In this document: positions 489 through 34,045 of the stretch, in pieces
How the letters are laid out: the number at the start of each line of letters is the position of its first letter
Numbering within the stretch: the stretch's first letter is position 1
Assembly (NCBI GenBank): GCA_030625085.1
Contig: DAOURK010000008.1
Coordinates: forward strand, 2,024-66,023
Length of the DNA: 64,000 bases
From: Pseudomonadota bacterium
GTDB taxonomy: Bacteria > SZUA-182 > DTGQ01
Reading direction: 5' to 3'
Translations under genes and position numbers: made by a program
Notes under the pieces: model-generated
Databases searched by the model: none
The model's input: the letters and a program-made list of their open reading frames with translations, nothing else
Told to the model about the DNA's origin: nothing

Positions 489-1667
489 ATGCCAGATAAA
501 AGACTCCCGCAATTCGTTTTCCTGTTTACCATTTTTTGTTCCATGCTGTTGGTTAATTTTGCGTGGGACCCCGTATTGGTCAGAGCTGCAGATCAGGAAA
601 ATTGTATGCTTTGCCATCGTTATTCCGGTCTGGGCTGTTTTGACAAAGATACAGGCGCGAAAAAAATCTTTTATGTGAATGAAGCGCTTTACTCTAATAC
701 TGTTCATAACAATGTTCTTTGCACCCACTGTCATTTGAATCTGAAAGAGGTGCCGCATAAACCGGCCAAAAAAGTTGATTGTGGAACAAAATGTCATGTA
801 AAGGATCCTTCTACCAATAAGGATTTTTCCCATAAAATAGTGGTAGATGAATTCAGAAAAAGCGTGCATGGCGAATCTGCCCTTTTTACCTATAAAGACA
901 AGCAGCCTCGATGTAAATATTGCCACACCAATCCTCTTTACTCACCCCTGCGAGGAATTATGGCCGAAAAGCCGGGTTGCGAATCAGAGGCGCTTGCCAG
1001 GTGTTTAGCCTGTCATGAAAAAAGTCCGTGGACGAAAAGATTTTTAAAACATTTTGTTTCCCGGACATCCTCACGTTGGAATAATAAACAGATGGTGGAC
1101 CTTTGTAATAATTGCCATGCGGATGAGGAATTTATGCACAGTTTTGGGCTTGAAACCACTGCTAATTTCAAGAGTACGTTTCATTACCGGAATGTGAAAT
1201 ATGAAAGTGAAAATGCCGCTAATTGCTTAAGCTGCCATGGGCCAAGTCAACCTATTGAGATTGAAGAGGGAAAACCTGTGCAATTTTCCGCTCATTCGAT
1301 TAAGTCTGCCGATAATCCGAAATCTTCGCTTTTCAAAGAACACCGGGCCCTTACGTGCGGACAGTTAGGGTGCCATGAAGGCGCCAATAGGTTTTTTGCC
1401 TCAGGTGCGGTACACGGTACGGGGACAAAACCAACCTTACTGCGTAAACGGTTAGTAGCAGAGGCCGAAGAATTAACCCAGGAAGAAAAGGAAGAGATTA
1501 AGGCTGACATTAAAAAGGCCAAGATGGATAAACTCCAATTAACCATAATTTGGGGCATTAAGGCCTTTTATAAATTAATGATTATCCTCGTTGGAGGGTT
1601 TATGTTTGTTCATCAAATGCTGGACTTGAGAATAACCTTGAAAGAGAGAAGAGAGGGGAGACATTAA
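489..1667 (+). CDS. Membrane-anchored multiheme cytochrome c with about 8 heme-binding motifs. A C-terminal TM helix makes it the candidate periplasm-facing subunit of a quinol-oxidoreductase-type complex.
   Basis: Motifs seen: CMLCH, CTHCH, CGTKCH, CKYCH, CLACH, CNNCH, CLSCH, CGQLGCH. A hydrophobic C-terminal helix (IIWGIKAFYKLMIILVGGFMFV) is present. RBS GAGGAG sits 9 nt upstream. The stop overlaps the start of the next gene (TAATATG). Confidence 0.8.
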   Translation: MPDKRLPQFVFLFTIFCSMLLVNFAWDPVLVRAADQENCMLCHRYSGLGCFDKDTGAKKIFYVNEALYSNTVHNNVLCTHCHLNLKEVPHKPAKKVDCGTKCHVKDPSTNKDFSHKIVVDEFRKSVHGESALFTYKDKQPRCKYCHTNPLYSPLRGIMAEKPGCESEALARCLACHEKSPWTKRFLKHFVSRTSSRWNNKQMVDLCNNCHADEEFMHSFGLETTANFKSTFHYRNVKYESENAANCLSCHGPSQPIEIEEGKPVQFSAHSIKSADNPKSSLFKEHRALTCGQLGCHEGANRFFASGAVHGTGTKPTLLRKRLVAEAEELTQEEKEEIKADIKKAKMDKLQLTIIWGIKAFYKLMIILVGGFMFVHQMLDLRITLKERREGRH

Positions 1668-1668
1668 T

Positions 1669-2454
1669 ATGGCCAGGAAATGGGGAAGAAGGTCAGAAGA
1701 TCAACAATACTTCGCTCGACTGTCGCGAGCTGAAGTATGGCAGCATAATATTGTTTGGATATCCTTTGTTTTATTGGTAGCTACGGGAATGATGTCTTTA
1801 ATACCAACCGATTGGGTAACGACCATGTTTGGCAGTTATACCACCCAAGTTTACTATTACCGTCGTATTGCTCATCTCGTCTTAGCGGTGCTTTTGATTG
1901 CCGGTTCTATATGGCATCTAGCTTATGGTGCATTGACGGAAGCCGGAAGACAGATGCTCAAGGATATGATTCCTACTTATACGGACGCCATTCAAATGAA
2001 GCAAAATATACAGTATATGCTCGGAATGTCGGATTTTAAACCTAAATTTGATCGTTTTGATTATCGGGAAAAAATGGAGTATATTTTTGGGCTAATCGGC
2101 ACCACGGTTATTGTTTTGACCGGCATTGTCATGACCTTTGCTCCCTATTTCCCTAAATTCATGGTTGATGTTTGCGGTACCTTCCATTTATGTGAGGCTA
2201 CCCTGGCCAGTATTACTATCGCAATCTGGCATTTCTACGCCATACATTGGAAACCGGGGCAATTCCCCCAGGACACTTCATGGCTTGACGGAATGGTAAC
2301 CATGGATCATTTGAAACATGAACACCCGCTGCAATGGGAGCGAGTAATGAGAGAAAGAGAAACGGCAAAAAAAAGAAGTGATGATTTTTCTTTTTTGGAT
2401 ACTCCCTCAACGAAAAGGCAATTTAATAACCTGCCGGAAATGGAGGAGGAATAA
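1669..2454 (+). CDS. Di-heme cytochrome b membrane subunit of the HyaC/FdnI-like family.
   Basis: Several TM helices carry conserved histidines (HLVLAVLLIAGSIWHLAYG; HFYAIHW). The gene is translationally coupled between two c-type cytochrome genes. Confidence 0.65.
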   Translation: MARKWGRRSEDQQYFARLSRAEVWQHNIVWISFVLLVATGMMSLIPTDWVTTMFGSYTTQVYYYRRIAHLVLAVLLIAGSIWHLAYGALTEAGRQMLKDMIPTYTDAIQMKQNIQYMLGMSDFKPKFDRFDYREKMEYIFGLIGTTVIVLTGIVMTFAPYFPKFMVDVCGTFHLCEATLASITIAIWHFYAIHWKPGQFPQDTSWLDGMVTMDHLKHEHPLQWERVMRERETAKKRSDDFSFLDTPSTKRQFNNLPEMEEE

Positions 2455-2457
2455 TCA

Positions 2458-3369
2458 ATGAAAAGCGGTCGTGGAAGTCTTGCTAAATTAATCAGTGTTC
2501 TATCAGCCATATTATTGGTGATTTGTTTGTTAATGATGGTAAAAGTTTTCTATTTTCCGAAAAAAGGGATCCATCACGGGCCACCCGGCATTGAGTTTGA
2601 AGAGACACAACAGGGAGAGTTGCCGAGAGTTATTGATACAAAGCCCATTGGAGTTGAGGTATTTGATAAGATCTTAAAAGAGAAGGCCTTTTCTCAAATG
2701 GAACATTTCCATAATGTGGACGATAGTCTTGATATCAAAAAACGGGTCCCTTCCCTCTGTTTAATTTGCCACGGGAGTTACCCTCACATTAAAGATAAGG
2801 AAGTTCGATCGCTCTATAATATGCACACCTTCTTTTGCGCCTGTGAAACGTGCCATACAAAGGCTACCAATGTTACTTATCTATGGTTTGATAATTATAC
2901 AGGCGAGAAAATCCCGGAGATCAAAGATCGTGTTCCGGACGGCGTTTATGCCGGCAATTATGGGGCCAAAATTGTTCCTTGTCTACCTAATAAAATTGGT
3001 AAATTCCAAAGACTTGATCAGCCTATTACTCAAGAATCTGCCCAAGAATATTTAAAATTATGGGCTCAATATAACTATGATCAGCAGTCAAAGGCCAAAG
3101 CTGAGGTGCATAAGCGATTGACTGACAAACCGGTTACCTGCTCTGAGTGCCATCGGAGGAAAGATCCCGTTTTGGATTTTAAGGCCCTGGGATATCCAAA
3201 GCACCTGTGTGATGAATTTACTGGAACTGAGGTAGCCGGTATGGTTGGTAAATATAAATCTTTATATCTGCCTACAATGTTTCGACCTGAAAATATTATC
3301 GACGGCAAAAGAACTTTAAAAGACGGTAAAATGCCTCTTCCCCTAACGGGCCAGGAAGGTATATTTTAA
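2458..3369 (+). CDS. Membrane-anchored triheme cytochrome c.
   Basis: N-terminal TM helix followed by CLICH, CETCH and CSECH. It starts 4 nt after the stop of the cytochrome b gene. Confidence 0.75.
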   Translation: MKSGRGSLAKLISVLSAILLVICLLMMVKVFYFPKKGIHHGPPGIEFEETQQGELPRVIDTKPIGVEVFDKILKEKAFSQMEHFHNVDDSLDIKKRVPSLCLICHGSYPHIKDKEVRSLYNMHTFFCACETCHTKATNVTYLWFDNYTGEKIPEIKDRVPDGVYAGNYGAKIVPCLPNKIGKFQRLDQPITQESAQEYLKLWAQYNYDQQSKAKAEVHKRLTDKPVTCSECHRRKDPVLDFKALGYPKHLCDEFTGTEVAGMVGKYKSLYLPTMFRPENIIDGKRTLKDGKMPLPLTGQEGIF

Positions 3370-3533
3370 TAAAACTTTTATGCCGATCATTCTTATTCCC
3401 GGCATCTTTCATCACAGACAAAAAGTAATTGACATTTTTTGACTGTCAATTCAAGGAATAAATAGCTGTCATTTTAGGGAATAAATAACATAAAAAGTAA
3501 ATTCCCACCACCTTCCCTCAAGGAGAAAAAAAA

Positions 3534-4661
3534 TTGCTGCGCTTGCCGCTCCGGCCGCCTCCGCCCTTATCCGGAAAACTTGGGACCGGAAAAATAGAAA
3601 TAATTGGAGTAAGAAAAAGTAAATGGTTACTCATTATAGGTCTTGTTGTATGTCGGCTCTTTATTTTTTTATTATTTTCTATAGGAAAAGTAAAACCGGC
3701 GGCGGCGGAGATTATTTCCGTCAAGCATCTCTTTGATATAGAAAAAAATGCTGTTGCCCCTCCCCTTAACCAACCAAGTGCAGTAGCCGTCGATCCCCAA
3801 AAAAGAATCTGGGTCCTCGATGGTGTCAACAGCCGGCTGGTAGGATTTTCATCTAAAGGAAAATATTTGACTCAATTTGGCCAAAAAGGAAGCGACCCTG
3901 GAGAATTTAAATCTCCATTGGGATTGACGATTGACTCTGAGGGGTTGTTGTATGTGGCCGATTCCAAGAATCATCGGATTCAAATTTTAGATGAAGCCGG
4001 TGGTTTTCTATCAGAATTGTATATTTCACCGGATAAATACGGCTGCTTGGCCGATCCGACGGATATTGTTTTAGACAAAGGTAAGCAGCGAGTTATCATA
4101 GTGGATAATGATAATCATCGTTTATTAATTTACAGATGGAAGTACAAATTAAGCGATCAGAAGCCGGTTGTTAGTGATGAAAAAAAGGCGGAGACTGCAC
4201 CTGAAAAAGAGGCTAATGCTCAGGCTATGGAATTAATAAGTGAGATAGGCGGTGTCGGGTATGAAGAGGGAAATTTTCGGTATCCTTATTCTGCTTGTAT
4301 AGATACTGCCGGCAATATCTATGTTACTGATGTGATCAACACCAGAGTTCAAGTATTCAACCCGCAAGGTGAGTTCATACGAAGCATAGGCGAATGGGGT
4401 ATTGAAAAAGGACAATTTTTCAGACCCCAATCTATTTGTATTGATCGGCAGGGAAGAGTTTTTGTTGGCGAAAACTATGATAAAATCGGCTTAATTCAGG
4501 TTTTTGACCAACAGGGCAATTTATTAGGCATAATTGGAGATGCCCAGAAACAAAAAATTCGTTTTCGGGTCCCAACCGATTTGTACATTGATCAACAAAA
4601 TCGATTGTATGTTGTTCAGATGTATACCAGTGTTATAAGTGTTTATTCTTTTATTGATTAA
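3534..4661 (+). CDS. NHL-repeat beta-propeller protein with an N-terminal membrane anchor or signal.
   Basis: TTG start with AGGAG 8 nt upstream. Repeated NHL-type blades are visible (YVADSKNHRIQILD, YVTDVINTRVQVFN, FVGENYDKIGLIQVFD). The N-terminal hydrophobic segment is WLLIIGLVVCRLFIFLLF. Confidence 0.7.
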   Translation: MLRLPLRPPPPLSGKLGTGKIEIIGVRKSKWLLIIGLVVCRLFIFLLFSIGKVKPAAAEIISVKHLFDIEKNAVAPPLNQPSAVAVDPQKRIWVLDGVNSRLVGFSSKGKYLTQFGQKGSDPGEFKSPLGLTIDSEGLLYVADSKNHRIQILDEAGGFLSELYISPDKYGCLADPTDIVLDKGKQRVIIVDNDNHRLLIYRWKYKLSDQKPVVSDEKKAETAPEKEANAQAMELISEIGGVGYEEGNFRYPYSACIDTAGNIYVTDVINTRVQVFNPQGEFIRSIGEWGIEKGQFFRPQSICIDRQGRVFVGENYDKIGLIQVFDQQGNLLGIIGDAQKQKIRFRVPTDLYIDQQNRLYVVQMYTSVISVYSFID

Positions 4662-4685
4662 TAAAGAATTTCATAAACTTGACTG

Positions 4686-7600
4686 ATGTTTAATCAAAAT
4701 TCTCACTATACTATCCTCCCCGGTTTTTTCAGAAAGTCTTCTCATAGTCAATTTACCCGCGGTCTGTATCTTTTCTGTTTATGGCTGATGGTAAATTTGG
4801 CCTGTTTTGTTTACCCGGTTCATGGACAAATGGTGCCGAACTCGGCTAAAGAATGCGCCATTTGTCACTTTCGGTGGTTGGATCAATTTTATCATGAGGG
4901 TCGAGGCACGGATCTGGTAAAGTACCAGGAAGAACGAGTAGCCGCCAGTGAAATGATTTGCTATAGCTGTCATAATGGTATTTTGGTTGACTCTCGCGAT
5001 CGATTTTGGGCTAAACGTGGGCACCGGGTGAATATGAAACCTTCGGACAAGATAAAGATTGATAAGGATATGCCCCTGGGAGAAGAGGGAGAGGTTACCT
5101 GTGCCACCTGCCACACTGCCCATGGTGTTTCCGACGAATTGCGCTATCAGCAAACGATTCATCTTCGATTTCCGAACCGGAATTCGGAAATTTGTATTCG
5201 ATGTCACTTTACCAAAACCGGCGGGCCGCCGGGAGGAAATCATCCCCTGGGAGTCAGCTCAATCCCTATTCCGACCAAAATCCTGGAAAATTACGGTCGA
5301 GCAGGTGTAAAAAAGGATGCCGTTATTTGCGAAACCTGCCATACTGTACATGGAACTATGGATAAAAACCTTTTGGTAATTCCGAATAAAATTGGGGAAA
5401 AATACACCGCCTTTTTATGTGAATCCTGTCATACGGCTAATCCCAGTCTGAGGGGCAAAGGCATAGGCAAGGGAACGCATCCTGTTAATAAAGTATCTAA
5501 GTTAAAAATGCCGTCTAAGTGGACTGACGGTTCTTCAATTATCACCGGGGCATATGGTCAAATCATTTGTTTAACCTGTCATTCACCTCATGAGGCCCAA
5601 AAAGAAACCTCTATTTTGGTGAAAGGGTCCAAATCGCCTCTTTGTATTGAATGTCACCAGCAGGAAAAAAACATTGCCGGAACAGAACATGATCTTACTT
5701 TATCCGCACCGGCTGAGATCGATTTAACTTCCAAAGTGGGCTCCCAAACAGGAATTTGCAGCGCCTGCCACAGACCGCACAATGCCGAAAAATATCGCCT
5801 GTGGTCGCGTTCTTTAGCCGGCCTTAAGGGAGACGCCGGCTCCCGGATGTGTGAGAGTTGCCACCATGTCAAGTCTTGCGCCAAAAAAAAATTGACCGGC
5901 GCCTTTAGCCATCCTGTGAATCGAGATATGTCCAAGGTTACAAGAAAAAAACAATTCCCTGCTTATGATGGAGAAGCCCGCCCTGCTGATCAAGGGAATA
6001 TCATGTGCGCTACCTGCCATAATCCCCACCAATGGGACCCTGAAAAAAATCAGTATGGATCAGGCCAGATGATTGAAGGCAACCGCTCAAATAGTTTTTT
6101 AAGAATGCCTAATAACAAGGATTCCGGTTTTTGTCTTGCCTGCCATCAGAGTAAAAACATGTTGATAAAAACAGATCATGATTTGCGGATTACAGCTAAG
6201 GAGGAACTCAATTCATTGGGGCAACTATGCACTCAATTCGGACCTTGCAGCGCCTGCCACGTGGTGCATAATGCTCAAGGAAACAAGCTGTGGGCTCGCT
6301 TGCTGCCTCAGGCCGATGATCCCATATCCGCCCTTTGCCAAAGTTGCCACCGGCAAGAAAGTTGCGCTCAGAAAAAATTGGTCGGCGCTTATACCCATCC
6401 AGTCCAAGCTGATATTCAATCGGCAGGAAATAAGACTTCACTCCCCTTATTCAATAAAAAAGGTGATATTAAAGCCCAAGCTAAATTGGTCACTTGTTCA
6501 ACCTGCCATAATGTCCATCAGTGGCGACCGGATCAAAAAGGTTTTGGTTCAGGCAAAAATGTAGAGGGAGAGGGGAAGGATAGTTTCTTAAGGATTGTCA
6601 ATGATGATAAATCCAGCCTCTGCCTTGATTGCCATAAAAACAAACAGTATATTGCTCAAACCGATCATGATTTGCGGTTCATGGCTCCCAAAGAAAAAAA
6701 TATTTTAGATACCGTACCGCAAAAAAGCGGCCTTTGCGGTTCCTGTCATCTGGCACATAATGGTGCGTCGATTTTTATGTTTGCCAAAAACTTGAATAAC
6801 CAAGGAGATTTAGCCAATCAATTATGTGCTTCCTGCCATAGAGAAAAGGGATGTGCTGAAAAAAAGGTAATCACCAATCATACTCATCCCCTGGATAAAG
6901 GGATTAAATCGGCAGACGAGTCTACCGGTCTTCCTCTTTACATGCCGGATGCTTCTAAACAGCCGGAAGGTAAGGTAGCTTGCCCCACCTGCCATAATGT
7001 GCATCAGTGGTCATCAACCGAATCGGCTTCCGGAACCGGAAAAAACAGGGAAGGGACGGCCGACAATAGTTTCCTTCGGCTCTCCATGTTGCCCAATCCA
7101 TCTCTTTGTGAAGATTGCCATCAAAAGGAATGTAGAATTGTTTACACCGATCATGATATGCGCATGGTGGCCGAAGGCGAAAAAAATATTCGAAATCAAA
7201 CTGTCCAAGAATCAGGGGTTTGCTCAGCCTGTCATTTGGTTCACAATGCCCCGGAGGATAATATGTGGGCGCGAGAGCTTCCTTACCTGGCCCAAAGCTT
7301 GATTACCCGGGAATGCTGCAGTTGCCATAGTGAGGGAAAGGCAGCTAAAGAAAAAATTATCGCCGGTTTTTCCCACCCGGTGGATATTCCTCCTGCCGAA
7401 AGGGAAATCACTACCGGCTTGCCCCTTTATACCATGGCCGGGGAGGTGGGAAAGTCGGCTAATGACCTTATGACTTGCACTACTTGCCATAATCCGCATC
7501 AATGGTCACCCGGGTATAAAGAAGATGAGACACCAACAAAAACAGTTACCCGGGGACAAAAGAAAAGGATTTTCAAGAAAAATCTTGAGGGAGATATTTA

Positions 7601-8267
7601 TAACAGTTTTTTAAGGCTGACGGAAGAAAAAAAGAAAAATCTGTGTACGGACTGTCATCAGGATAAACAGCATATTTGTCTGAGTGAACATGACCTGCAG
7701 TTGCTGGCTGCTGATAAGCCAAATTTACAAGGACGAACAGTAAAACAATCAGGTGTTTGCTCTGCATGTCATCTTGTGCATAACAGTCCCTATAAAACAA
7801 TTAGTTGGGCTCGGCAACTGCCGCCGGGAAAAGATTTTATGCTGACCACCTGTCTTTCATGCCATGAAAAAGACAAATGCGCTGAGAAAAAAATTGCCTT
7901 TATCGGTCTTCATCCCAGATCCTTCGTTTATACCGGCAAAATTACCCAGTTCCGAAGAATGGGGAATGTTGACTATCAAAGTTATTTTCCATTATATAAT
8001 AACAGTGGGGCAAAATCGCCAATCGGGTATGTAACTTGTCCTACATGCCACAATGTTCATCAGTGGGACCCTCAATCGAAGGTATACCCGGAGGGGAGAA
8101 AGAATATTGAAGGGGACCCCCGCAATAGTTTCTTGCGCAATAGCGGGGCCCAATTCTCTATTTGTCTTGATTGCCATGGTTTTGAAGCCATTCTCAGATA
8201 TAAAAATTATCATGTTCCTTCAGAATGGCAGCAAAAATATTGGCGGCCGGGCCAGAAAATAAAATAG
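4686..8267 (+). CDS. Giant modular multiheme cytochrome c of 1193 aa with about 28 CxxCH motifs. It is built from about five tandem tetraheme modules.
   Basis: I counted 28 CxxCH motifs. A recurring module runs NSFLR - CxxCH - DHDL - CSACHxVHN - WAR - CxSCH - HP - TCxTCHNxHQW. A signal-like N-terminus is present. Confidence 0.85.
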   Translation: MFNQNSHYTILPGFFRKSSHSQFTRGLYLFCLWLMVNLACFVYPVHGQMVPNSAKECAICHFRWLDQFYHEGRGTDLVKYQEERVAASEMICYSCHNGILVDSRDRFWAKRGHRVNMKPSDKIKIDKDMPLGEEGEVTCATCHTAHGVSDELRYQQTIHLRFPNRNSEICIRCHFTKTGGPPGGNHPLGVSSIPIPTKILENYGRAGVKKDAVICETCHTVHGTMDKNLLVIPNKIGEKYTAFLCESCHTANPSLRGKGIGKGTHPVNKVSKLKMPSKWTDGSSIITGAYGQIICLTCHSPHEAQKETSILVKGSKSPLCIECHQQEKNIAGTEHDLTLSAPAEIDLTSKVGSQTGICSACHRPHNAEKYRLWSRSLAGLKGDAGSRMCESCHHVKSCAKKKLTGAFSHPVNRDMSKVTRKKQFPAYDGEARPADQGNIMCATCHNPHQWDPEKNQYGSGQMIEGNRSNSFLRMPNNKDSGFCLACHQSKNMLIKTDHDLRITAKEELNSLGQLCTQFGPCSACHVVHNAQGNKLWARLLPQADDPISALCQSCHRQESCAQKKLVGAYTHPVQADIQSAGNKTSLPLFNKKGDIKAQAKLVTCSTCHNVHQWRPDQKGFGSGKNVEGEGKDSFLRIVNDDKSSLCLDCHKNKQYIAQTDHDLRFMAPKEKNILDTVPQKSGLCGSCHLAHNGASIFMFAKNLNNQGDLANQLCASCHREKGCAEKKVITNHTHPLDKGIKSADESTGLPLYMPDASKQPEGKVACPTCHNVHQWSSTESASGTGKNREGTADNSFLRLSMLPNPSLCEDCHQKECRIVYTDHDMRMVAEGEKNIRNQTVQESGVCSACHLVHNAPEDNMWARELPYLAQSLITRECCSCHSEGKAAKEKIIAGFSHPVDIPPAEREITTGLPLYTMAGEVGKSANDLMTCTTCHNPHQWSPGYKEDETPTKTVTRGQKKRIFKKNLEGDIYNSFLRLTEEKKKNLCTDCHQDKQHICLSEHDLQLLAADKPNLQGRTVKQSGVCSACHLVHNSPYKTISWARQLPPGKDFMLTTCLSCHEKDKCAEKKIAFIGLHPRSFVYTGKITQFRRMGNVDYQSYFPLYNNSGAKSPIGYVTCPTCHNVHQWDPQSKVYPEGRKNIEGDPRNSFLRNSGAQFSICLDCHGFEAILRYKNYHVPSEWQQKYWRPGQKIK

Positions 8268-12744: not shown

Positions 12745-13995
12745 CTAATACGCATGGCATTCATTACATAACTGCTTTGAACCATCCAGTCGCATAAGCT
12801 GCGGGAATTCGGCCTCCATCATATTATGACAGGTTATGCAATCAATAAGGGACTTATCTCTCGGATCTATGGCTTTTTCACCCACCGGATGACAGAGCCC
12901 CTTTTGTCGCTTGTGACAATCGATGCAAAGGGTAAGAGGGGAAGTTTTTAAAAATTTCAGCTTGTCCGAGGCATGAGCATCATGACAAGTAGAACATTTC
13001 CCTGCTGAAACCTCCGGATGACGGTTAAGTCCCTTTTTCTGCACTCTGAGCCTTTTTCGTATATCCTGATGGCAGGCCGTGCAAAGAGGCCTATCACTCC
13101 TTCTCACCAAATCCTCTCTTTCCGAACCGTGGGGATTATGGCAGAAGACACATTCATCCCGGCCGGATACAATATGACTTTTCTCTTTGGCCTTAAACTT
13201 CTCTTTGGTTTTTGGATGACAGGCATAACAGTCTTCCGCTCTGGCGGTAACGGGTCCGGAACCTGATGAATCAGGGTGACATTTCAGACATTCTTTTTGG
13301 GTATAAGGATCATGTGAGAAGCTAAAGAGTAAATTCTTTTTGTTGGTAGAATGAGGATTATGACAGCAAAGACAATCAACTTGATTGATCTGAAAATCCG
13401 GGTGTTCAGCTTTCAAGCTTTCCGTTGTATGGCATTGAAAACACAGTTGAGGTGATAACTGGGTAAGTAGTAAGGGGTTTTGAGAACTATGGGTTTGATG
13501 GCAAATGGTACAACTGCCTTCTTCAACCGGTTGATGAACATATTCCTTTTCAAATGATGCCTTATCATGACACTGATAACATAAATCCTCTCCCTCCAGC
13601 CTTAAAAGACTGGTGTAAGGTGATACATGCGGCTGGTGACACTTAAGACACTCTCCATATTCCACCGGAAGATGCACTGTTTTATCTTTAAGCCAATTCC
13701 TGTTGGATTCATGACACCCATAGCAAAGAGCATCTCCAATATTAAGCAGAAGATTTTGGTGCTTGGCTGCATGGGGTGTATGGCAGGAGATACATTCTTT
13801 GACGTTTAAGGCCTGATGGGGCTTGCCCTCTTCTAATTCCTCTTTCATTTCCGGATGACAATCAAGGCATGCTTGCTTTAAATCGGATTTTAATATTGCT
13901 TTTGCCTTTACCTGCACTACCTGCCGGCCTAAAATCAGACCAATAATAATAACCCCTAATAATAAACTTAATCTTGATCCAGCTATTTTTTTCAT
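12745..13995 (-). CDS. Multiheme cytochrome c with about 16 hemes and a repeated CxxCHxPH motif.
   Basis: 16 CxxCH motifs, most followed by xPH and then LL about 8 residues later (CISCHTPHAAKHQNLL, CLKCHQPHVSPYTSLL, CLCCHNPHSTNKKNLL). The track start at 14088 overlaps the upstream gene. I prefer Met32 (MKKIAGSRLSLLLGVIIIGLILG, a signal-like sequence) at 13995; Met24 at 14019 is the alternative. Confidence 0.8.
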   Translation of the reverse strand: MKKIAGSRLSLLLGVIIIGLILGRQVVQVKAKAILKSDLKQACLDCHPEMKEELEEGKPHQALNVKECISCHTPHAAKHQNLLLNIGDALCYGCHESNRNWLKDKTVHLPVEYGECLKCHQPHVSPYTSLLRLEGEDLCYQCHDKASFEKEYVHQPVEEGSCTICHQTHSSQNPLLLTQLSPQLCFQCHTTESLKAEHPDFQINQVDCLCCHNPHSTNKKNLLFSFSHDPYTQKECLKCHPDSSGSGPVTARAEDCYACHPKTKEKFKAKEKSHIVSGRDECVFCHNPHGSEREDLVRRSDRPLCTACHQDIRKRLRVQKKGLNRHPEVSAGKCSTCHDAHASDKLKFLKTSPLTLCIDCHKRQKGLCHPVGEKAIDPRDKSLIDCITCHNMMEAEFPQLMRLDGSKQLCNECHAY

Positions 13996-14011
13996 AGTAT
14001 CTTCATAACCC

Positions 14012-25600: not shown

Positions 25601-27956
25601 ATCTGTTTACATGGTCCGGCTCAGAGCTGATCAGAGCATAGGGCCCTCCGGGGGTTTGACTGCGATAGAGGTGATAGCCCCTGATATTCTCATCAGGATA
25701 TTTTTCCCAGCTAAGCTCAACCAGCCTTTTCCCTGCGGTTGCTATAAAGCCGCTCGGGGGTGCCAGGGGGGGGAGGGGGACACTTTTCAGCCTGCTCTGC
25801 CCTTTCTTGCCTGGCTTGGGCTTCGGGTTATGAACATTGAAGGCGGGGCTGGCCGCGCTGGTAACGTCGTAGTCTTTGCCGTGGCAATTATAGCAATGCG
25901 TGGTGCCGTCCGATTCATGGTGGCTCTGTTGTCCCATTTCAAGCTCGGGTATCGCGGCCATCACAATCCCGTCCACCTCGGGGCATTGGCCATTATAAAG
26001 CGTGCAGTTCGGATCATCGCTGGGCACATGACAACTGAAACAAAAAGGCCGGCATTGGCTGGCCATGGTTTTGGTGTCGATAATCCCATCATATCCCGGT
26101 CGCTGATCGCTGAGCAGATAGGCATTCGGTAGACCAATATCGGCATGTCCTCTAGTGCCGTGCGGATTATGGCAATTTGAGCAGGCCAATCTATCCCCCA
26201 CCTGAATATGATCCGGCCAGTAAGAAGCGCTGTTGGTGGACTTTCTGATCATATGACCTGCAGTTTCGGGATTTATGGATTTATTATAATAATGGGAGAT
26301 ATTTTTGTTTTCACTATCCATGCCGGCCGGACCATCATGGTCGTGACATTTTAAACACAGTTCATAGTTGAGCGGCTCATCGCCCTGAGAGGACCCCTTG
26401 GTGCTGAGATAGGTGTCAATGAGCATATCAAAGGCATTGCCCGTGCCGTGAGGAGAGTGGCAATTCACGCAACGTCCTACGCCGGACGAATCCTTTATCG
26501 GCATATCAGGATCATTCCGGTGTGGCGAAAAAAACTTCTGCGGCGGGCCATCATCCCAGGTGTTCGGGTTCTCAAAAACATCCATCCCGGGCCAGGCCAC
26601 CCGATTGTTGAGTCCGGGCGCCTTTGCCCCTGAGACAAAATATTCGAAATATCCCGGATAATCAGAGCCGGCCGGCGCCCTGTCTTCTTCCTGGGCCGGG
26701 TAGCCGGAATAGCCTCCCGTGGGCGTAAAATCGTGGCAACCCGTTGTATAACATAAGGCATTGGTATTATCGGTAAACAGATTGTAGTCCTTTCCGACGT
26801 GCTGAAGGTGACATTGGTTGCACTCTCCTTTGAGCCACCGATCATCCCTGGAAAGCCCCGTATCCGGATGGCCGTGGGGCGAAACATCATAAATTCCATT
26901 ATCCTCGTCGTCAGTCCCTCCCCTAAGGTGACATGCCTGGCAGGTGCCCACCATGCGCGAGCCGTCCTCAAGAGTGGATGTTTCCGGATCATCGTACATA
27001 AGACAAAAGAGCTGATCCGAACCGTGGGCTTTATGGCAGGAGGTGCACCCGGTTTCATTATCGCTTACGGATTTGGTACCGATCTCCCCTAAGGGCGAAA
27101 TGTAGGGAGGCCTGGATAAAACGAGGCTTGACCACCAGTATCCCAGACCACCGTCCGCGGTTCCATCGATATGTAGGTTAGTGACACCCTGCGCAAGAGT
27201 AATTCCCACCGTAGGATGCCTTATCCAGGTGTCCGTATCGAGGGCCTGTGTATCTCCAGATGAAGAGCCGCCCATATTGGCATCTCCCCCGTCGCCGTAA
27301 AACTGCCCATGGCAGCCCGCGCACCAGGCGGAAAGGCCGTAATTATTGTCTGACTCTGATTGGCGGTGTTTAATATTGCCGACCTTATAATGTTCGGCAA
27401 GAGGCGTATCGAGTAATTGTTGCACGGCAACATCACCCCCATAGGTCCCTGTTTCATAGGTCACTGTAATGTTGACGGCCTGACCCGGGTTCGTCCTCAA
27501 GTTGCGGTAATAGTCATTGCCATGGGGGTTATGGCAGGTGATGCAGGTCAGGGGATCACCCGACCACGTCCCCGAATAACCCGGTGGCGTGACAGTGCTT
27601 CCCAGGGAGTGCTTACTCGGAGAATTGGGATCAATGGACAATTCCCCGGCGCTGGAAATATAGCGTTCCTCCCCCAGTACATTGGGGGCTGAGGTGTCGG
27701 TGCCGTCATGGCACATCAGGCACATCTCATTGGTCAAATTCTTGAGCAGTCTTTCATAGGGGCCGGCTTGACCCCAATCGGCCGACACCCCGCCATCCTG
27801 GCTGTAATGAATAGTATGGCAATCCGAACAATAAAGATTTTTAGACCCGACATGGAAATCACCGGCCACAGCGGTTTTTTTCACCCATGGGCATAGCAAA
27901 AAGAAAAATAAGAAAACCATGGGTAAGAAGATATGTATTTTGGGCTTTCCAGTCAA
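22650..27956 (-). CDS. Giant 1768-aa extracellular fusion protein. An N-terminal multiheme cytochrome with about 13 hemes and an OmcS-like first-heme motif is followed by FN3-like and Ig-like (Big) domains.
   Basis: After the signal peptide comes DFHVGSKNLYCSDCHTIHYSQDGG, matching the CHTMHxSQDG motif of the OmcS-like paralogues. There are 12 CxxCH motifs plus 1 CxxxxCH in the first ~700 aa. FN3-like segments follow (YHLYRSQTPGGPY..., YYVYRR..., YRIYRG...), then C-terminal Ig-like repeats. Confidence 0.8.
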   Translation of the reverse strand: MTGKPKIHIFLPMVFLFFFLLCPWVKKTAVAGDFHVGSKNLYCSDCHTIHYSQDGGVSADWGQAGPYERLLKNLTNEMCLMCHDGTDTSAPNVLGEERYISSAGELSIDPNSPSKHSLGSTVTPPGYSGTWSGDPLTCITCHNPHGNDYYRNLRTNPGQAVNITVTYETGTYGGDVAVQQLLDTPLAEHYKVGNIKHRQSESDNNYGLSAWCAGCHGQFYGDGGDANMGGSSSGDTQALDTDTWIRHPTVGITLAQGVTNLHIDGTADGGLGYWWSSLVLSRPPYISPLGEIGTKSVSDNETGCTSCHKAHGSDQLFCLMYDDPETSTLEDGSRMVGTCQACHLRGGTDDEDNGIYDVSPHGHPDTGLSRDDRWLKGECNQCHLQHVGKDYNLFTDNTNALCYTTGCHDFTPTGGYSGYPAQEEDRAPAGSDYPGYFEYFVSGAKAPGLNNRVAWPGMDVFENPNTWDDGPPQKFFSPHRNDPDMPIKDSSGVGRCVNCHSPHGTGNAFDMLIDTYLSTKGSSQGDEPLNYELCLKCHDHDGPAGMDSENKNISHYYNKSINPETAGHMIRKSTNSASYWPDHIQVGDRLACSNCHNPHGTRGHADIGLPNAYLLSDQRPGYDGIIDTKTMASQCRPFCFSCHVPSDDPNCTLYNGQCPEVDGIVMAAIPELEMGQQSHHESDGTTHCYNCHGKDYDVTSAASPAFNVHNPKPKPGKKGQSRLKSVPLPPLAPPSGFIATAGKRLVELSWEKYPDENIRGYHLYRSQTPGGPYALISSEPDHVNRYMDKEVSPEQNYYYVLTVEDMPGMESTYSEEARATPVSLTPKELKTLEEVKGLSAKIEGDTICLTWEEDLDELVAGYYVYRRLEGEGPQWVRITRYEPLRWPVYEDRKIVKGKVYLYTVAAVDSMGNEARFPKEVRVSYEALYIFSVSLSQGEIPLKGGRQMVATLTGSPGQRAYFTIEGLAEPIFMEETDGTGTYIGKYLIPGETDQAQLKVTGFLDDGRGKIRSKESPFPLKIDNLPPPAPARLEAALNSDGSVSLLWPAAEEADEQIASYRIYRGLNEGITPDVNSRLASDLPPDRREYKDFDLRPDTRYYYLITSVDEAENESAPSSIAEVFVPPDTIPPFITEIRVIGEKEVWNLGENISLLMIGEPGCKAAFSLGGRIKDIVMIESFEKGRYEGKYVFQDVDEAEGMIITGRLTDPSGNSTSRTLSNRVSVVRRSAGAKPEIYAIEEDSFQVGGSVGLVTGDLFKIIVRGTPGCKGAFHLGAFVNEDRTVSLDWSGFSESDNPDISAYRIYRGTWPAFSPDKQNPLAMLGLGAREYQVTDNESDLNDSFFITAVNNDGHPRLISTPKRNIALMETDDPGTYESEYTVLPTERIIQGYVFASLRDEFGQYSLPFRSSHTITMDTESRIEVRPLPPELKADSLSRGRVLALLKNARGRGIADRQVGVTLFASSEYTGLVGLGKLNQADIGYVVNPLFGINDPTASGESYVFTTDGFGQISMEYQTGFAAKTIIFRAEDQITGDVGFGYLTSYLETQAQVEQYLPIEQAKARMRARGQEYYLSLSASPQWLTADGVGRSQIKAELIDRTGTPVKGHRITFIVSMGDGYLQPREAYTDAGGKAEVKYVAGRSIGTVEITATDVTATPPLGAKTHIILKSDAPAVLEVSVKPERIPADGKSTCTLTIKVTDINKNPCRGVAPSVRVISGGGKILKIDEITDFSGQARAVYQAGKEPGTAKFNVRVTSKIPTSKELEEIRWTR

Positions 27957-28005
27957 TGTCTTTACCTTTCAGCACACCACGGAGGCACAGCGTCAAGGAG
28001 AAAAA

Positions 28006-29290: not shown

Positions 29291-29312
29291 TAAAATAATG
29301 ATAAAAATTTCT

Positions 29313-30560
29313 CTAATTTTTCCCTGAATGGCAAATCTTACATCCCGTGTTTTTACCATCATCGGCCTCCACCTGCTCATAATCCCAGCGAAGGATGTCT
29401 GGATAGGGTGAGGCATGGGCCCGATGACAGGAAAGACACATCACCTGATCATTGCCTCCATATCCGTTCCCTGTGCTTACCTTAAGTCTCTCAGAAGGAG
29501 TTATATAAGGCTCCAGATTTTTCCTGGCTACCGGGGCATCTAAATTATATTCCGTGTAGGCATCAAATTCTCCTCCCTCCGGCAATCCGATATGCGCAGG
29601 GTGTCTAAACCAGGGGCTGGCATTCACTCCCTCAGGGGAGGTTTTATCTTTAGCATGAAAATTCCCATGACAACCCCCGCAAGAATCACTTATCGAGTGG
29701 TCCGGATCGGCAGAGGTTGCATCTACATTACTTCCCTTATATTGATTAATTGGATAGTCATCCCCTTTTGATTGCTCCCAGTCGTAAGATTCAATGCCGT
29801 GAATTCCACTAATTTCAGCATCATGCCCCTTCAAAAAACGATAACAACCCACAGTATGATCCACTATGAGATTATAATCATCCGGGTTATTACTGACATG
29901 ATCTTCCGCATGATGGCTCTTTCTTATATTAGTATGGCAGCTTTTGCAGCCGCAATAAGGTTCATCGATAAGCGCCTGGTCACCGTTTAAGTTATGATCT
30001 CTTCCATTAAGATATTTATGGCAAGGAATACATGTGCCGGCATAAAGTCCGCTTTCCGTTCTGCCGGGGGCATCGTCCAACTCGGAATCCTTGAGGGAAA
30101 TACCCTCTGTTGCATCGATCCCACCAGGGCCGGCCAAAATATTGTGCCCTCTATCATCCCCAAGCGTCATCCAATAAAAATTACCACCTGCAAGTTCCTT
30201 ACCATCAGCCGGCTGTTGAGTATTATAGACAATGGGAATTCTGCTTGTCCCCGGATCAGCCGGATCGCCTCCCACATATTTAATGGTCTCGCTTCCCGTG
30301 TTGGAGTGACACCCGATACAATCAACCTTAGTTAAGGCGGAACCAGGCAGAGTGCCGCCGCCGATACCGTAGTTGACTGGATTTTGTATGTTTTCGGACG
30401 TCCCTTCCTGGCTGGTGTGCATAGTATGACAATTGTCACAATTTCCGGTAACCTTGGCCATGGAACGGGCCGGATTCGTAAATATGACTAATACGGCGAC
30501 AATACAACAATGCATAATAAAATGTAAACAGTGTTTATGCGCCTTTCCTTTCCCTCTCAC
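29313..30560 (-). CDS. OmcS-family (nanowire-type) multiheme cytochrome c with 7 CxxCH motifs.
   Basis: Signal peptide, then AKVTGNCDNCHTMHTSQEG. An internal MCLSCHRAHASPYPDILRW matches what I recall of the OmcS heme-5 region (NCLSCHRAHASGF...). The protein ends ...GCKICHSGKN. No alignment was run. Confidence 0.65.
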   Translation of the reverse strand: MRGKGKAHKHCLHFIMHCCIVAVLVIFTNPARSMAKVTGNCDNCHTMHTSQEGTSENIQNPVNYGIGGGTLPGSALTKVDCIGCHSNTGSETIKYVGGDPADPGTSRIPIVYNTQQPADGKELAGGNFYWMTLGDDRGHNILAGPGGIDATEGISLKDSELDDAPGRTESGLYAGTCIPCHKYLNGRDHNLNGDQALIDEPYCGCKSCHTNIRKSHHAEDHVSNNPDDYNLIVDHTVGCYRFLKGHDAEISGIHGIESYDWEQSKGDDYPINQYKGSNVDATSADPDHSISDSCGGCHGNFHAKDKTSPEGVNASPWFRHPAHIGLPEGGEFDAYTEYNLDAPVARKNLEPYITPSERLKVSTGNGYGGNDQVMCLSCHRAHASPYPDILRWDYEQVEADDGKNTGCKICHSGKN

Positions 30561-30704
30561 TTTAGCCCCCTTTCAACCCCCCATGTTAAATTACATAGTT
30601 TCATAAGTATACAAATAATCTTTTTGTTTTACAAGTAATAATCGGGTTTACCCACCAATTCTCATTTTGAACTTTTCGTTTTAAAAAACTCACTAAAACA
30701 ATAC

Positions 30705-31799: not shown

Positions 31800-31837
31800 A
31801 GAAAGAGGGCCAACCCTCTTCCTTTGATTTTTACCGG

Positions 31838-32887
31838 CTATCTCTGGTTATTATGACAGCTTAAGCATCCGGGGACATCCCCATCGCCGGCAATCTGTAA
31901 ATCATAGTCAAATCGTAAAATATCATTATTCCCCGTGCCGTGGGCTCGATGACAGGACAAGCAGGTAACCCTTCCTACCTTCGTTTCATCTGCCTCGGCA
32001 AATCCCAGAGGATTATTCACTCTGTCCTCATCATCATAATTTGTATCATGTGCAGTACCATTATCATTGACGATTCCCCAGGTCTCCTCGTAACCTCCGC
32101 CTGTATGGGGGATATCAATATCTGTAGGATGGCGGACAAAGGGCGATGAGCCCTGTAAATGAAAATTACCATGGCATTTTCCGCAAAAATCACTAATAGT
32201 TACCTCATCCTCTCCAGCGCTATAGACATTATAATTAGGGTCCGATGAAGCACCGGTAATTAAACCTTCTTCATAATCGCCACACCCCTTACCAACAACA
32301 GGGTCCCCATCTACATAAAGCATCCGATAGGTGGAACTAACATTGTGATGCCCTTTTTTGATTGCTTCAGTATCATCAACTGAGGTTTGATTTCCATGAC
32401 ACCCTGTGGCTCCGGCGCAGGTGAACTTATGTTCACCGCCGTCATCTCCCTTATACCAATCCTCCCCAGAGGGATTATATCCCACAGGTGTTTCCGTACT
32501 CCCCAGGGTATGACTATTATCATCATGGTTTTCATCGTCAGTATCATCAGTAAAAAAGCCACCGGCCAGACACTGACCATCACTTAAAGCCGTACCTTGA
32601 ACAAAAGGCGTATGATAGGTATCATCACGGGGATCGGTGCTGCCGTCCGGCGCAGTATGGCAACCGATACAATCATCTTTCAATAAGATTTCATAGGGCC
32701 CCTCCATGCCGTATTCCAGAGGAACGGTGCCATTCTGGCTGTAATGCATAGTATGACAATCATTGCACGAGCCGCCGACATCGGCCCCGGCAATATTTCC
32801 GGTAGCCACTATAATCAAACATGATACAGCTAAAACCATAGAATTTAATATGATACTTTTTATCTGTTTGGTGATATGTTTCATCAT
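31838..32887 (-). CDS. OmcS-family hexaheme cytochrome c.
   Basis: Motifs seen: ADVGGSCNDCHTMHYSQNG, CIGCH, CAGATGCH (CxxxxCH), CGKCHGNFH, VTCLSCHRAHGTGNNDILRFDY. The C-terminal end is ...GCLSCHNNQR. Confidence 0.65.
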   Translation of the reverse strand: MMKHITKQIKSIILNSMVLAVSCLIIVATGNIAGADVGGSCNDCHTMHYSQNGTVPLEYGMEGPYEILLKDDCIGCHTAPDGSTDPRDDTYHTPFVQGTALSDGQCLAGGFFTDDTDDENHDDNSHTLGSTETPVGYNPSGEDWYKGDDGGEHKFTCAGATGCHGNQTSVDDTEAIKKGHHNVSSTYRMLYVDGDPVVGKGCGDYEEGLITGASSDPNYNVYSAGEDEVTISDFCGKCHGNFHLQGSSPFVRHPTDIDIPHTGGGYEETWGIVNDNGTAHDTNYDDEDRVNNPLGFAEADETKVGRVTCLSCHRAHGTGNNDILRFDYDLQIAGDGDVPGCLSCHNNQR

Positions 32888-33007
32888 TACTCTAACCTCC
32901 TATAACCTCTCTTTTAACCTTAAAGTTAACTCCAGGATTATGCCTTCCGGCACAATCAGACCTATCTTCATTGTTTTTTTATTTGGCCGGCCGATTTACA
33001 CCTCCCT

Positions 33008-34045
33008 TCATTTTTTTCTATGTTTAGTTTGAAATATCTGTACTCTTTTATTGAACGTATCGGCCACAAACAACCTGCCTTTATTGTCAATACATATATC
33101 TTTGGGATAACTGAACCATCCCGGCCCCCAGCCTTCGCCCCCGAACTCATTCATGAACTCACCGGAAGAATCAAATGTTAAGAGGGTGTGTCGCATGTAG
33201 TCCATGACGTAAGTCACGCCATCTGCGGGATCAACAGTGAGCCCCTGGGCTCGGCTCAGTTTGCCGGGGCTTCCGCCTTTTTTGCCGAATGCCCGTATTT
33301 TTTTCTCTCCTTTGATATCGTATACGTGAACCTGACCGTGCCATTCGCTCAAAAGATAGATATGGTCTCCTTTCAGGGTTACTCTGTTCACATCCGCTTT
33401 CTTTTCCTCTCCGCTTCTTTTTTTTCCAAAGGGTTCAATGGCCCTTATAAATTCGCCCTTTCTATTTAAGATAATCAGCTTTCCACAAGAGCCGCCGGCA
33501 AGGTAGAGATTCCCTTTCTCATCTACGGCTATGTCCCTGGCCCTAAAGCTTTTGGCCCCGGCAAAGCCTTCAAAACGTATTGTTTTCCTCTTGCGGCCAA
33601 GGGGATCAAAAACCAGAATCAGGCCCTTCCCCGCATTACAGGTGATTTCTTCGGAAACATAGATCATCCCCTTGGTATCCACAGCCACACTTAAGGGAGA
33701 CTTAAGCCCATGAGATTTATCTATTACTGATATGGGGATAAAATTCTTGTCATAAATCAACACCTTCTGAAGACCGCTATCCAGGATATAGATCTCTCCG
33801 TTTTGGGTGACGTAGACATCGGTAGGAAATTGTAACGAGACATCCATCCCCGATTTAATGGCATCTAAATAAGTAATTTTTTTCTTATCAAAGGCGTAAC
33901 AGGTGATGGGTGCTGCTATGATGAACAATAGGGAGGAGAGGATTGATATCAAGCACAGCAAGGCGCAAACAGACAATCGCCGGGGAGGGATTTGTCTTTT
34001 TGTTGTTTCGGTAGTTTCTGTTGTTAGACTTAAGATGCTTAACAC
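33008..34045 (-). CDS. NHL-repeat beta-propeller protein, the first gene of the minus-strand array.
   Basis: Blades seen: IYVSEEITCNAGKGLILVFD, TYVMDYMRHTLLTFDSSGEF, LFVADTFNKRVQIFQ. An N-terminal TM segment (ALLCLISILSSLLFIIAAPI) is present. Confidence 0.65.
   Translation of the reverse strand: MLSILSLTTETTETTKRQIPPRRLSVCALLCLISILSSLLFIIAAPITCYAFDKKKITYLDAIKSGMDVSLQFPTDVYVTQNGEIYILDSGLQKVLIYDKNFIPISVIDKSHGLKSPLSVAVDTKGMIYVSEEITCNAGKGLILVFDPLGRKRKTIRFEGFAGAKSFRARDIAVDEKGNLYLAGGSCGKLIILNRKGEFIRAIEPFGKKRSGEEKKADVNRVTLKGDHIYLLSEWHGQVHVYDIKGEKKIRAFGKKGGSPGKLSRAQGLTVDPADGVTYVMDYMRHTLLTFDSSGEFMNEFGGEGWGPGWFSYPKDICIDNKGRLFVADTFNKRVQIFQTKHRKK

Follow-up and report, generated by a model that had tools for sequence, protein, structure and literature searches.

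The window analysed here is a stretch of 64,000 nucleotides from contig DAOURK010000008.1 of a Pseudomonadota bacterium (assembly GCA_030625085.1). Between positions 489 and 39314 it carries an island of genes for multiheme c-type cytochromes and exported accessory proteins. The island is probably an osc-type system, that is, one that makes and wires filaments of OmcS-family cytochromes. An earlier sequence-only reading of the same DNA had described it as an island for extracellular electron transfer (EET). This was right in kind, and a more specific identity can be given: an osc-type cluster for OmcS-family nanowires and their biogenesis, with a CbcBA-like module at its left end.

The window contains 45 substantial open reading frames (ORFs). 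A regular-expression search of their translations finds 141 CXXCH motifs, all within 13 proteins encoded between 489 and 39314; from left to right, the cytochrome genes hold 6, 3, 28, 8, 14, 16, 25, 5, 12, 7, 5, 7 and 5. Six variant heme sites that do not overlap a CXXCH bring the total to 147 in these 13 proteins. They are a CX3CH and a CX4CH in 489-1667, a CX4CH in each of 14012-15985 and 22650-27956, and a CX5CH in each of 31838-32887 and 38157-39314. With the variants included, the genes hold 8, 3, 28, 8, 14, 16, 26, 5, 13, 7, 6, 7 and 6 sites. Regular-expression matches to CX4CH in 2458-3369 and 29313-30560 merely overlap a CXXCH and were not counted. The earlier estimate of about 150 heme-binding motifs is thus close to the exact number rather than far above it, and the list of motifs per gene that came with it agrees gene by gene with these totals once the variant sites are included.

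The enrichment in heme motifs is real and far beyond what composition would give, because residue shuffles of the 27 island proteins produce a mean of only 1.26 CXXCH (maximum 4 in 200 shuffles) and the same search finds none in the 18 ORFs that follow the island on its right (6592 amino acids, aa). To the left of 489 the sequence is AT-rich and non-coding, and a terminator-like hairpin lies beyond the right end. Position 33008, where the island had been said to end, is no boundary. Nor is the heme density unusual, as had been claimed: the 3.8 sites per kb of the island are close to the 3.1 per kb of the Geobacter osc locus (61 CXXCH in 19.8 kb). Such a density is typical of an osc-type cluster. 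The total alone is larger, owing to additional paralogs and further large cytochromes.

Searches of Pfam and NCBIfam assign generic multiheme domains to the 13 cytochromes and identify one cytochrome b, five full NHL propellers and one propeller remnant. The accessory proteins named in the sequence-only reading were confirmed by Pfam as NHL and YVTN propellers, a SurA-like peptidyl-prolyl isomerase (PPIase) and lipoproteins. A signal peptide, membrane anchor or lipobox is predicted on every island product. Table 1 lists the features.

Table 1. Genes and intergenic elements of the cytochrome island (E, E-value; TM, transmembrane; dG, folding free energy).
Start	End	Strand	Feature	Details
489	1667	+	8-heme c-type cytochrome, CbcA-like architecture	6 CXXCH + CX3CH + CX4CH; MtrC/MtrF domain II/IV match
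1669	2454	+	Membrane cytochrome b, putative quinol-oxidising, CbcB-like	PF01292 (Ni_hydr_CYTB / formate dehydrogenase gamma-like) E 2.2e-8
2458	3369	+	3-heme cytochrome with N-terminal membrane anchor	3 CXXCH; TM-like N-terminus
3534	4661	+	NHL six-bladed beta-propeller just before 28-heme gene	NHL E 5e-34
4686	8267	+	28-heme cytochrome, 1193 aa	28 CXXCH; Paired_CXXCH, MtrC/F, cytochrome c7 domains
8319	9194	-	8-heme cytochrome, N-terminal TM anchor	8 CXXCH; weak, sub-threshold NapC/NirT-like match
9483	11189	-	14-heme cytochrome, accessory	14 CXXCH
11190	12629	-	OscD-like YVTN/YncE-type beta-propeller lipoprotein	BLASTP to OscD E 2e-36/2e-37, 465/479 residues; lipobox TLSC
12745	14088	-	OscJ-like 16-heme cytochrome	32% identity over 421 aa, E 4.5e-68
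14012	15985	-	OscI-like 26-heme lipoprotein, MtrA/DmsE-like modules	36% identity over 626 aa, E 1e-133; lipobox LCSC
16010	17725	-	OscH-like SurA-type PPIase chaperone lipoprotein	Rotamase_2 + SurA_N; lipobox FLSC
17706	18293	-	Small 2-TM protein, HAMP-like segment	HAMP E 5.5e-4, below cut-off; TM-like at 18, 63
18296	18781	-	5-heme periplasmic cytochrome	5 CXXCH; among relatives only in L002 and L006
18778	19395	-	OscF/OscG-like lipoprotein (C-terminal half of OscG)	E 1.8e-13 to OscF; lipobox YSGC
19450	19477	-	Stem-loop within OscEFG-like block	12-bp stem, 9 GC pairs; dG -27 kcal/mol, z -5.7
19549	20178	-	OscG-like (N-terminal half of OscG)	E 8.6e-11 to OscG residues 38-179
20194	20805	-	OscF-like LpoB/GNA1162-type lipoprotein	32% identity over 194 aa, E 2e-26 to OscF; lipobox YIGC
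20905	22557	-	Short OscE-like outer-membrane beta-barrel, 550 aa	Profile link to OscE family
22650	27956	-	1768-aa cytochrome, OmcS-like module + Ig-like domains	13 heme sites; Big_1, Invasin_D3
28217	29416	-	NHL beta-propeller before giant cytochrome gene	NHL E 1.5e-18; kept in L001, L003, L005, L006
29313	30560	-	OmcS-family cytochrome, 7-heme class, 415 aa	PDB best match OmcS 6EF8 E 1.9e-4, residues 39-393; CHTMH
30705	31799	-	NHL beta-propeller before 415-aa OmcS-like gene	NHL E 1.9e-12; E 7e-20 to Geobacter 315-aa protein
31792	31831	-	Stem-loop directly after 349-aa 6-heme gene, terminator/attenuator candidate	18-bp stem; dG -31 kcal/mol, z -5.8
31838	32887	-	OmcS-family cytochrome, 6-heme class, 349 aa	5 CXXCH + CX5CH; PDB best match OmcS 6EF8 E 3.7e-3
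33008	34045	-	NHL beta-propeller, first gene of minus-strand arm	NHL E 3.5e-20
34046	35251	.	AT-rich (31.6% GC) non-coding region between divergent arms, 1.2 kb	Short ORFs only; presumed promoter/regulatory
35252	35773	+	NHL propeller remnant before 374-aa OmcS-like gene	~110 N-terminal aa homologous
35835	36959	+	OmcS-family cytochrome, 7-heme class, 374 aa	E 3e-10 to OmcT; 37% identity to 415-aa paralog; CHTMH
36963	37913	+	NHL beta-propeller lipoprotein before 385-aa OmcS-like gene	NHL E 3.4e-24; lipobox LFSC
38157	39314	+	OmcS-family cytochrome, 6-heme class, 385 aa	5 CXXCH + CX5CH; E 5e-10 to OmcS; CHTMH
39354	39396	+	Intrinsic-terminator-like hairpin with U-tract, right island end	dG -28.6 kcal/mol; comparable one after L006 orthologue

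The best solved relative of the cytochromes of 349 to 415 aa is OmcS (6EF8), which pointed to the osc operon of Geobacter. That locus was found with an OmcS sequence mostly rebuilt from the PDB alignment, which led to two contigs (L007 and L008) and then, through OscE, to a third (L009). The gene order of L009 is a 315-aa propeller-like protein, omcS, omcT, oscB (1017 aa), oscC (OmcS-like), oscD (a YncE propeller), oscE (725 aa), oscF (LpoB/GNA1162-like), oscG, oscH (a PPIase of 571 aa), oscI (26 CXXCH), oscJ (16 CXXCH) and oscK (NHL). All ORFs of the window were compared with the L009 proteins by BLASTP.

The block from OscE to OscJ keeps its gene order in the window. Both the number and the positions of the hemes are preserved in its two largest cytochromes: when the OscI-like and OscJ-like proteins are globally aligned with their Geobacter partners, 26 of 26 and 16 of 16 heme motifs, respectively, share alignment columns. 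This agreement is strong evidence of orthology. The OscI-like protein also matches the MtrA chain 6R2Q_A in the PDB (E 4e-13), and it exceeds the cut-off of TIGR03508 (258.7 bits against 192.2) only when five repeated stretches are summed. The name listed for the molecule 6R2Q_A, 'Cystathionine beta-synthase', looks like a label error; a further match is to 28pb_A, a 278-aa 'Cytochrome c' entry (E 4.4e-6). The true start of the OscJ-like protein is probably internal, near 13995-14019.

Other members of the block are also recognisable. The OscH-like protein aligns with OscH over 554 aa (E 2.5e-17), and both are 571 aa long. The OscF-like protein has a weak LpoB match in Pfam. OscG is represented by two separate genes with the halves in the right order, the product of the second (18778-19395) matching OscG residues 192-300 (E 1.5e-6). 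As summarised in PMC13194489, Shen et al. 2025 assign OmcS folding to OscH, secretion to OscE, OscF and OscG, and filament morphology to OscD.

The product of 20905-22557, called a porin in the sequence-only reading, has no Pfam or NCBIfam match, and thus none to the MtrB/PioB family. The call stands in so far as the protein is modelled as an all-beta hairpin protein and resembles the OscE barrel. Only 14 close homologues were found among 5.8 billion proteins, which raised the idea of a new porin family. This was rejected when a profile search linked the barrel to OscE: against 1.84 billion representatives, the family profile recovered about a hundred proteins of 700-770 aa, three of which (P0176, P0156 and P0175) also belong to the list of OscE homologues. 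In these matches, residues 10-230 of the query align with 15-250 of the target and residues 235-520 with 410-710, leaving an insert of about 160 aa between them. Because the profile reaches members of the OscE family, the 550-aa ORF can be read as a shortened OscE that lacks this internal insert. A Foldseek search with the barrel model gave loose matches to barrels of 22-26 strands, including MtrB (TM-score 0.40). These are weak support, since the matches are generic large barrels and the model has a predicted local distance difference test score (pLDDT) of 52.7.

An OmcS-like module is found in five genes of the island, namely the four small paralogs and the N-terminal ~385 residues of the giant cytochrome (22650-27956). 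In a profile-profile comparison (hhalign), the small paralogs of this lineage align with 29 OmcS-family proteins over 271 columns with a probability of 99.8% (E 8e-30); the 415-aa protein also matches OmcT (E 3e-13). Among themselves the OmcS-like paralogs are 24-37% identical, and they appear to be old. Similarity to other filament cytochromes is confined to a marginal match of the 374-aa protein to OmcE (7TFS, E 0.1), and no match to OmcZ was found. Homologues of OmcS are common (5556 proteins at E <= 1e-3), and they have been reported as widespread (PMC10954620). OmcS filaments have reportedly been expressed in Shewanella oneidensis (bioRxiv 10.1101/2023.10.26.564108).

Heme motifs 1, 2, 4, 5 and 6 of OmcS occur in conserved order in all five OmcS-like genes. 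The 7-heme class (415 and 374 aa) retains OmcS motif 3 and has one added site. This added site is a CXXCH in the 7-heme class, aligned with the CX5CH of the 6-heme class (349 and 385 aa). The CX5CH is part of a conserved C-A-G-x-T-G-C-H, seen in both 6-heme genes of the window and in two related loci (L001, 586-1659, and L006, 2141-3298, the latter locus holding the orthologue of the 385-aa gene). It is a putative heme-binding site of the 6-heme class, which may or may not hold the heme by two thioether bonds. The 349-aa protein is a candidate for the major filament subunit.

Near the predicted mature N-terminus, all five OmcS-like proteins carry the motif CxxCHT(M/I)H, and its second histidine is invariant (column H48) in 33 sequences. 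We take this histidine to be His16 of OmcS (precursor His41 minus a 25-residue signal peptide), the residue that provides the ligand between subunits. His16 reportedly ligates a heme of the adjacent subunit, a result attributed to Wang et al. in 2019. For OmcS filaments it is described that one axial ligand of heme 5 is supplied by the neighbouring subunit (PMC6584659; PMC9473688).

Each of the five OmcS-like genes is directly preceded by an NHL propeller gene, just as omcS of Geobacter is preceded by a propeller gene. The NHL proteins match the 315-aa protein of Geobacter and OscK, with a best E of 7e-20. In one case the partner is an N-terminal remnant (35252-35773), which is 60% identical to residues 11-110 of the 36963-37913 product and to nothing beyond. 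The module of the 374-aa OmcS-like gene has lost most of its propeller partner.

The giant cytochrome joins an OmcS-like module to domains of another kind. Its residues ~34-385 form the OmcS-like module (BLASTP of residues 34-385: E 1e-5 to OmcS, E 2e-16 to the 349-aa paralog), with a CHTIH motif at residue 46. A second heme module extends to the last site at residue 688. It is followed by about 1070 heme-free residues that end in Big_1/invasin-D3 immunoglobulin (Ig)-like domains. Homologues in the related loci L001-L006, where the position is covered, are 55-60% identical with the same motif and heme layout, and the ligand histidine is present in every one. In every related locus that covers the position, the giant gene lies directly upstream of the gene for the short OscE-like barrel. 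The Geobacter locus L009 has no counterpart of it. With a GC content of 0.51 the giant gene is also the maximum of the window (0.54-0.57 at third codon positions in the heme-bearing part); other island genes have 0.39-0.48 and ORFs outside the island 0.30-0.43. Its high GC could reflect a different origin or expression-linked codon use.

The cluster is syntenic in six other loci, at 42-65% identity: a JGI metagenome contig (L001) and five species-representative metagenome-assembled genomes (MAGs; L002-L006). The order of 12-14 core genes is the same throughout. Among named relatives, the closest is a MAG labelled 'Deltaproteobacteria bacterium', whose barrel is 87% identical. Relatives of the source MAG are JBLIRM01, JBLIRP01, JBLIRN01, JBLIRO01 and JAFGSM01. 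Three genes vary among relatives. The 14-heme gene is missing in L001, L003 and L004 from the interval between the OscD-like gene and the 8-heme gene, which itself is kept at the cluster end in these three loci. The gene for the HAMP-like protein is full length in L002 and L006, encodes 99 aa in L001 and is absent from L003 and L004. The third variable gene is the 5-heme gene.

At the left end of the island, a gene for an 8-heme c-type cytochrome is followed, after a gap of 1 nucleotide (nt), by a gene for a membrane cytochrome b. The former has TM-like segments at residue 6 (an N-terminal signal or anchor) and at residue 351 (C-terminal). The latter has three TM-like segments in a crude hydropathy scan, and an FdnI-like NCBIfam score well below the cut-off. 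CbcBA of Geobacter is a bc-type inner-membrane quinol oxidoreductase in which CbcA is a multiheme c-type cytochrome with a C-terminal TM segment (bioRxiv 10.1101/2021.04.15.440034). By architecture, a b-type membrane cytochrome gene beside one for a multiheme c-type protein with a C-terminal TM segment, 489-3369 can be likened to a CbcBA-type cytochrome b/c module. It differs in having 8 heme sites instead of 7 and in its gene order, c then b. Further along the left block, the 3534-4661 propeller resembles by BLASTP the Geobacter 315-aa protein upstream of omcS and OscK; the 28-heme protein has no one-to-one partner in the Geobacter osc locus.

The homologies, the collinearity, the conserved motifs, the export signals predicted for the products and the persistence of the cluster in relatives together identify a known kind of system, osc/OmcS. 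With a probability of about 0.72, the island is a variant osc-type system by which a small uncultured lineage makes and wires OmcS-family cytochrome filaments. Relative to the omcS-osc locus of Geobacter sulfurreducens and G. anodireducens (OmcS, OmcT, OscB-OscK), it shares the OscE-to-OscJ order, the heme layouts of OscI and OscJ, the length of OscH, the OscD-type and NHL propellers, the ligand histidine of the CHTMH motif and a propeller gene directly upstream of an OmcS-like gene. It is distinct in several respects. There is no OscB, the OscE-like barrel is without the central insert and some 175 aa shorter, and OscG is split in two. The OscD-like gene follows that of OscJ rather than preceding oscE, and its product has no CXXCH. 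Four small OmcS-like paralogs form two subunit classes with one propeller gene per subunit, and the giant OmcS-Ig fusion is added to them, as are a linked cytochrome b/c module and further genes for proteins with 5, 8, 14 and 28 hemes.

In such a system, the CbcBA-like module would take electrons from the quinol pool at the inner membrane. Anchored or periplasmic proteins with 8, 14, 5, 16 (OscJ-like) and 26 hemes (OscI-like, with MtrA-type modules) could carry them across the periplasm. Passage through the outer membrane would be provided by the short OscE-like barrel with three OscF/G-like proteins (two of them lipoproteins), as an exit for OmcS-like subunits, for electrons or for both. Outside the cell, the OmcS-family subunits encoded by two 6-heme and two 7-heme genes would polymerise head-to-tail, with the conserved histidine of the N-terminal CxxCHTMH providing, as it does in Geobacter OmcS, a ligand to a heme of the next subunit. 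The OscH-like prolyl isomerase may fold these subunits. The beta-propellers, one OscD-like and an NHL protein before each OmcS-like gene, may be partners in assembly or morphology, and the 1768-aa protein may sit at one filament end as a base or adhesive tip.

Several points count against this interpretation. Identity to OmcS is only 23-28% by BLASTP, and the 6-heme class is without OmcS motif 3 and has its CX5CH at the added-site position of the 7-heme class. An AlphaFold2 model of the 415-aa protein (from a 33-sequence alignment) has a pLDDT of 38.5 and is unusable for fold comparison. The pairwise link of the barrel to OscE is weak (BLAST E 0.006; hhalign probability 74%), and its AlphaFold2 model, all beta-hairpins, is of low confidence. 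The OscD-like proteins of this lineage lack the CXXCH that Geobacter OscD carries. OscB, a 1017-aa spermine-synthase-like membrane protein, was not found by tblastn of the window (best E 1.7) or in L001-L006; it could be encoded elsewhere in the genome. Filament formation, like the direction of electron flow, the accessory roles and the transcription units, is inferred, and the filaments are read from sequence. In Geobacter itself, the physiological need for OmcS filaments is disputed (PMC13194489).

The OmcS-like proteins could instead be non-polymerising and form, with the NHL propellers, the barrel and the large cytochromes, a cell-bound outer-membrane complex, possibly for electron uptake. 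A precedent is Desulfovibrio ferrophilus IS5, in whose outer-membrane cytochrome clusters (DFE_448-451 and DFE_461-465) Deng et al. 2018 described expressed multiheme cytochromes with two adjacent NHL genes; they proposed that the propellers stabilise an outer-membrane complex for electron uptake (PMC5815863). Likened by description, the clusters share multiheme cytochromes beside NHL propellers and a proposed role at the cell surface; they differ in that uptake by a cell-bound complex is proposed there and that no PPIase, barrel and lipoprotein set is described. One NHL gene per OmcS-like gene would fit stoichiometric complexes, the closest named relative is labelled a deltaproteobacterial MAG, and sequence does not reveal which way electrons flow. 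However, the histidine used for ligation between subunits in OmcS is invariant, the full gene set for OmcS folding, secretion and morphology is present and collinear, and a propeller gene followed by omcS is also the arrangement in Geobacter, whose OmcS forms filaments. A cell-bound complex is therefore judged unlikely.

Likeness to the MtrCAB and Pcc conduits of Shewanella and Geobacter is of a more general kind. As there, a large outer-membrane barrel is encoded together with a long periplasmic multiheme protein, here a 26-heme protein of MtrA/DmsE-type modules that is an orthologue of OscI and not a decaheme protein. The island differs in having no MtrB/PioB-family match and an extracellular partner of the OmcS type. 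Among the window proteins, the NCBIfam model for MtrC/OmcA-family decaheme cytochromes (TIGR03507) scores at most 44.4 bits against a cut-off of 209.3.

A further question is how the filament genes are transcribed. From 8319 to 34045, 18 genes lie on the minus strand, as the sequence-only reading had noted, and it took their short or overlapping junctions as a sign of long polycistronic transcription. All junctions that it quoted are real when the longest ORFs are used: 11189/11190 abut, and the genes overlap at 14012-14088, 17706-17725 and 18778-18781. Several genes are thus tightly coupled. Over the whole run, 4 of the 17 junctions overlap, 1 abuts, 4 have gaps of at most 38 nt and 8 have gaps of 92-288 bp. 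A single polycistronic unit of ~26 kb, driven from the intergenic region at 34-35 kb, would fit the shared strand, the close junctions and the gene order kept in six related loci; the number of terminator-like sites is also not above the shuffled expectation. It is nevertheless improbable. Within the run there are two intergenic hairpins of high stability (dG -31 and -27 kcal/mol; z about -5.8), and the one after the 6-heme OmcS-like gene is positionally conserved in L001 and L003 with unrelated sequence. Because of these hairpins, the eight gaps of 92-288 bp and this conservation, several transcription units or attenuation points are likelier than one 26-kb mRNA.

Strong hairpins follow both 6-heme-class genes of the window and their counterparts in L001, L003 and L006, again with unrelated sequences. 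After 7-heme-class genes or the giant gene, no comparable hairpin was found in the window or its relatives. Such conservation of position suggests that transcription is terminated or attenuated, or the mRNA stabilised, after what are likely the major subunits, and it fits structural subunits that are separately controlled and abundant.

Consensus scans for sigma-70 promoters and terminators are at or modestly above the shuffled expectation and cannot define operons. In the region between the divergent arms (34046-35251), two sigma-70-like sites with 10 of 12 matching positions face the minus arm. A sigma-54-like -24/-12 element, TGGCATAATTTTTGCG at 34862-34877 (+), faces the plus-strand arm. 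Over the window as a whole, the sigma-54 pattern matches 25 times where 27.6 matches would be expected, which is chance level. In Geobacter, omcS has a gene for a sigma-54 activator upstream of it. No tRNA genes or Rfam families were found in the window.

That the island is a chance or recombinational pile of unrelated respiratory cytochrome modules, for example of nitrite, sulfite or hydroxylamine enzymes, is very improbable: the left block (489-8267) does lie on the other strand without a counterpart in the Geobacter osc locus, and the 14-heme gene and the pair of 5-heme and HAMP-like genes vary among relatives, but the 12-14 core genes keep their order in six loci in agreement with the Geobacter osc order, every product is predicted to be exported, no CXXCK site occurs in the ORF translations of the window, and the NrfA, HAO and octaheme-enzyme families all score far below their Pfam and NCBIfam cut-offs. 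These low scores and the absence of CXXCK also speak against enzymes of the Nrf, HAO or octaheme reductase type, and that reading was rejected.

If the island does make OmcS-type filaments, a more speculative extension can be considered. The lineage might build more than one kind of filament, from 6-heme subunits with CX5CH and from 7-heme subunits, each with its own NHL partner, and the giant cytochrome might be a dedicated filament terminus. As a whole this is doubtful. Through its single OmcS-like module, which retains the ligand histidine, the giant could attach to a filament at one end. The other six hemes and the ~1000 Ig-like or invasin-type residues could then tether the wire to the product of the neighbouring gene, the short OscE-type barrel, or form a tip that adheres to minerals or partner cells and conducts electrons. 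We know of no cytochrome nanowire with a described base or tip subunit.

Geobacter is, to our knowledge, the only group in which OmcS filaments and the genes for their assembly (osc) have been studied. A version that has diverged but stays collinear sets the conserved core of the machinery (the heme layouts of OscI and OscJ, the ligand histidine) apart from parts that appear dispensable (OscB, a full-length OscE, a fused OscG). The two subunit classes with different heme numbers and the strict arrangement of one propeller per subunit can serve as natural experiments, and the fusion of an OmcS module to Ig-like domains could throw light on the anchoring or ending of filaments. Follow-up would be most worthwhile for this fusion protein and for the multiple classes of subunit. 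For annotation, dense multiheme islands of uncultured anaerobes can be assigned to a specific system and need not be left as generic EET loci.

The island is flanked on its right by genes of other kinds. Four small tetratricopeptide repeat (TPR) proteins are encoded at 39516-42609 on alternating strands. They form a paralog family with weak, below-cut-off matches to CcmH/CycH TPR models, and at least three of them share a near-identical N-terminal TM segment and motif, ATYVRNTVWKNELS. From 43134 to 63252 follows an exopolysaccharide-type cluster with a GC content of 30-40%, against 39-51% in the island. It encodes a protein like sulfatases and lipoteichoic acid (LTA) synthases, a B12-radical SAM protein, glycosyltransferases of families GT1, GT2 and GT4, a flippase, methyltransferases and a pyruvyl transferase with an FrhB-like partner. 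In the Geobacter contig L007, too, genes for glycosyltransferases and PMT_2-TPR proteins are found upstream of omcS, which may be a coincidence.

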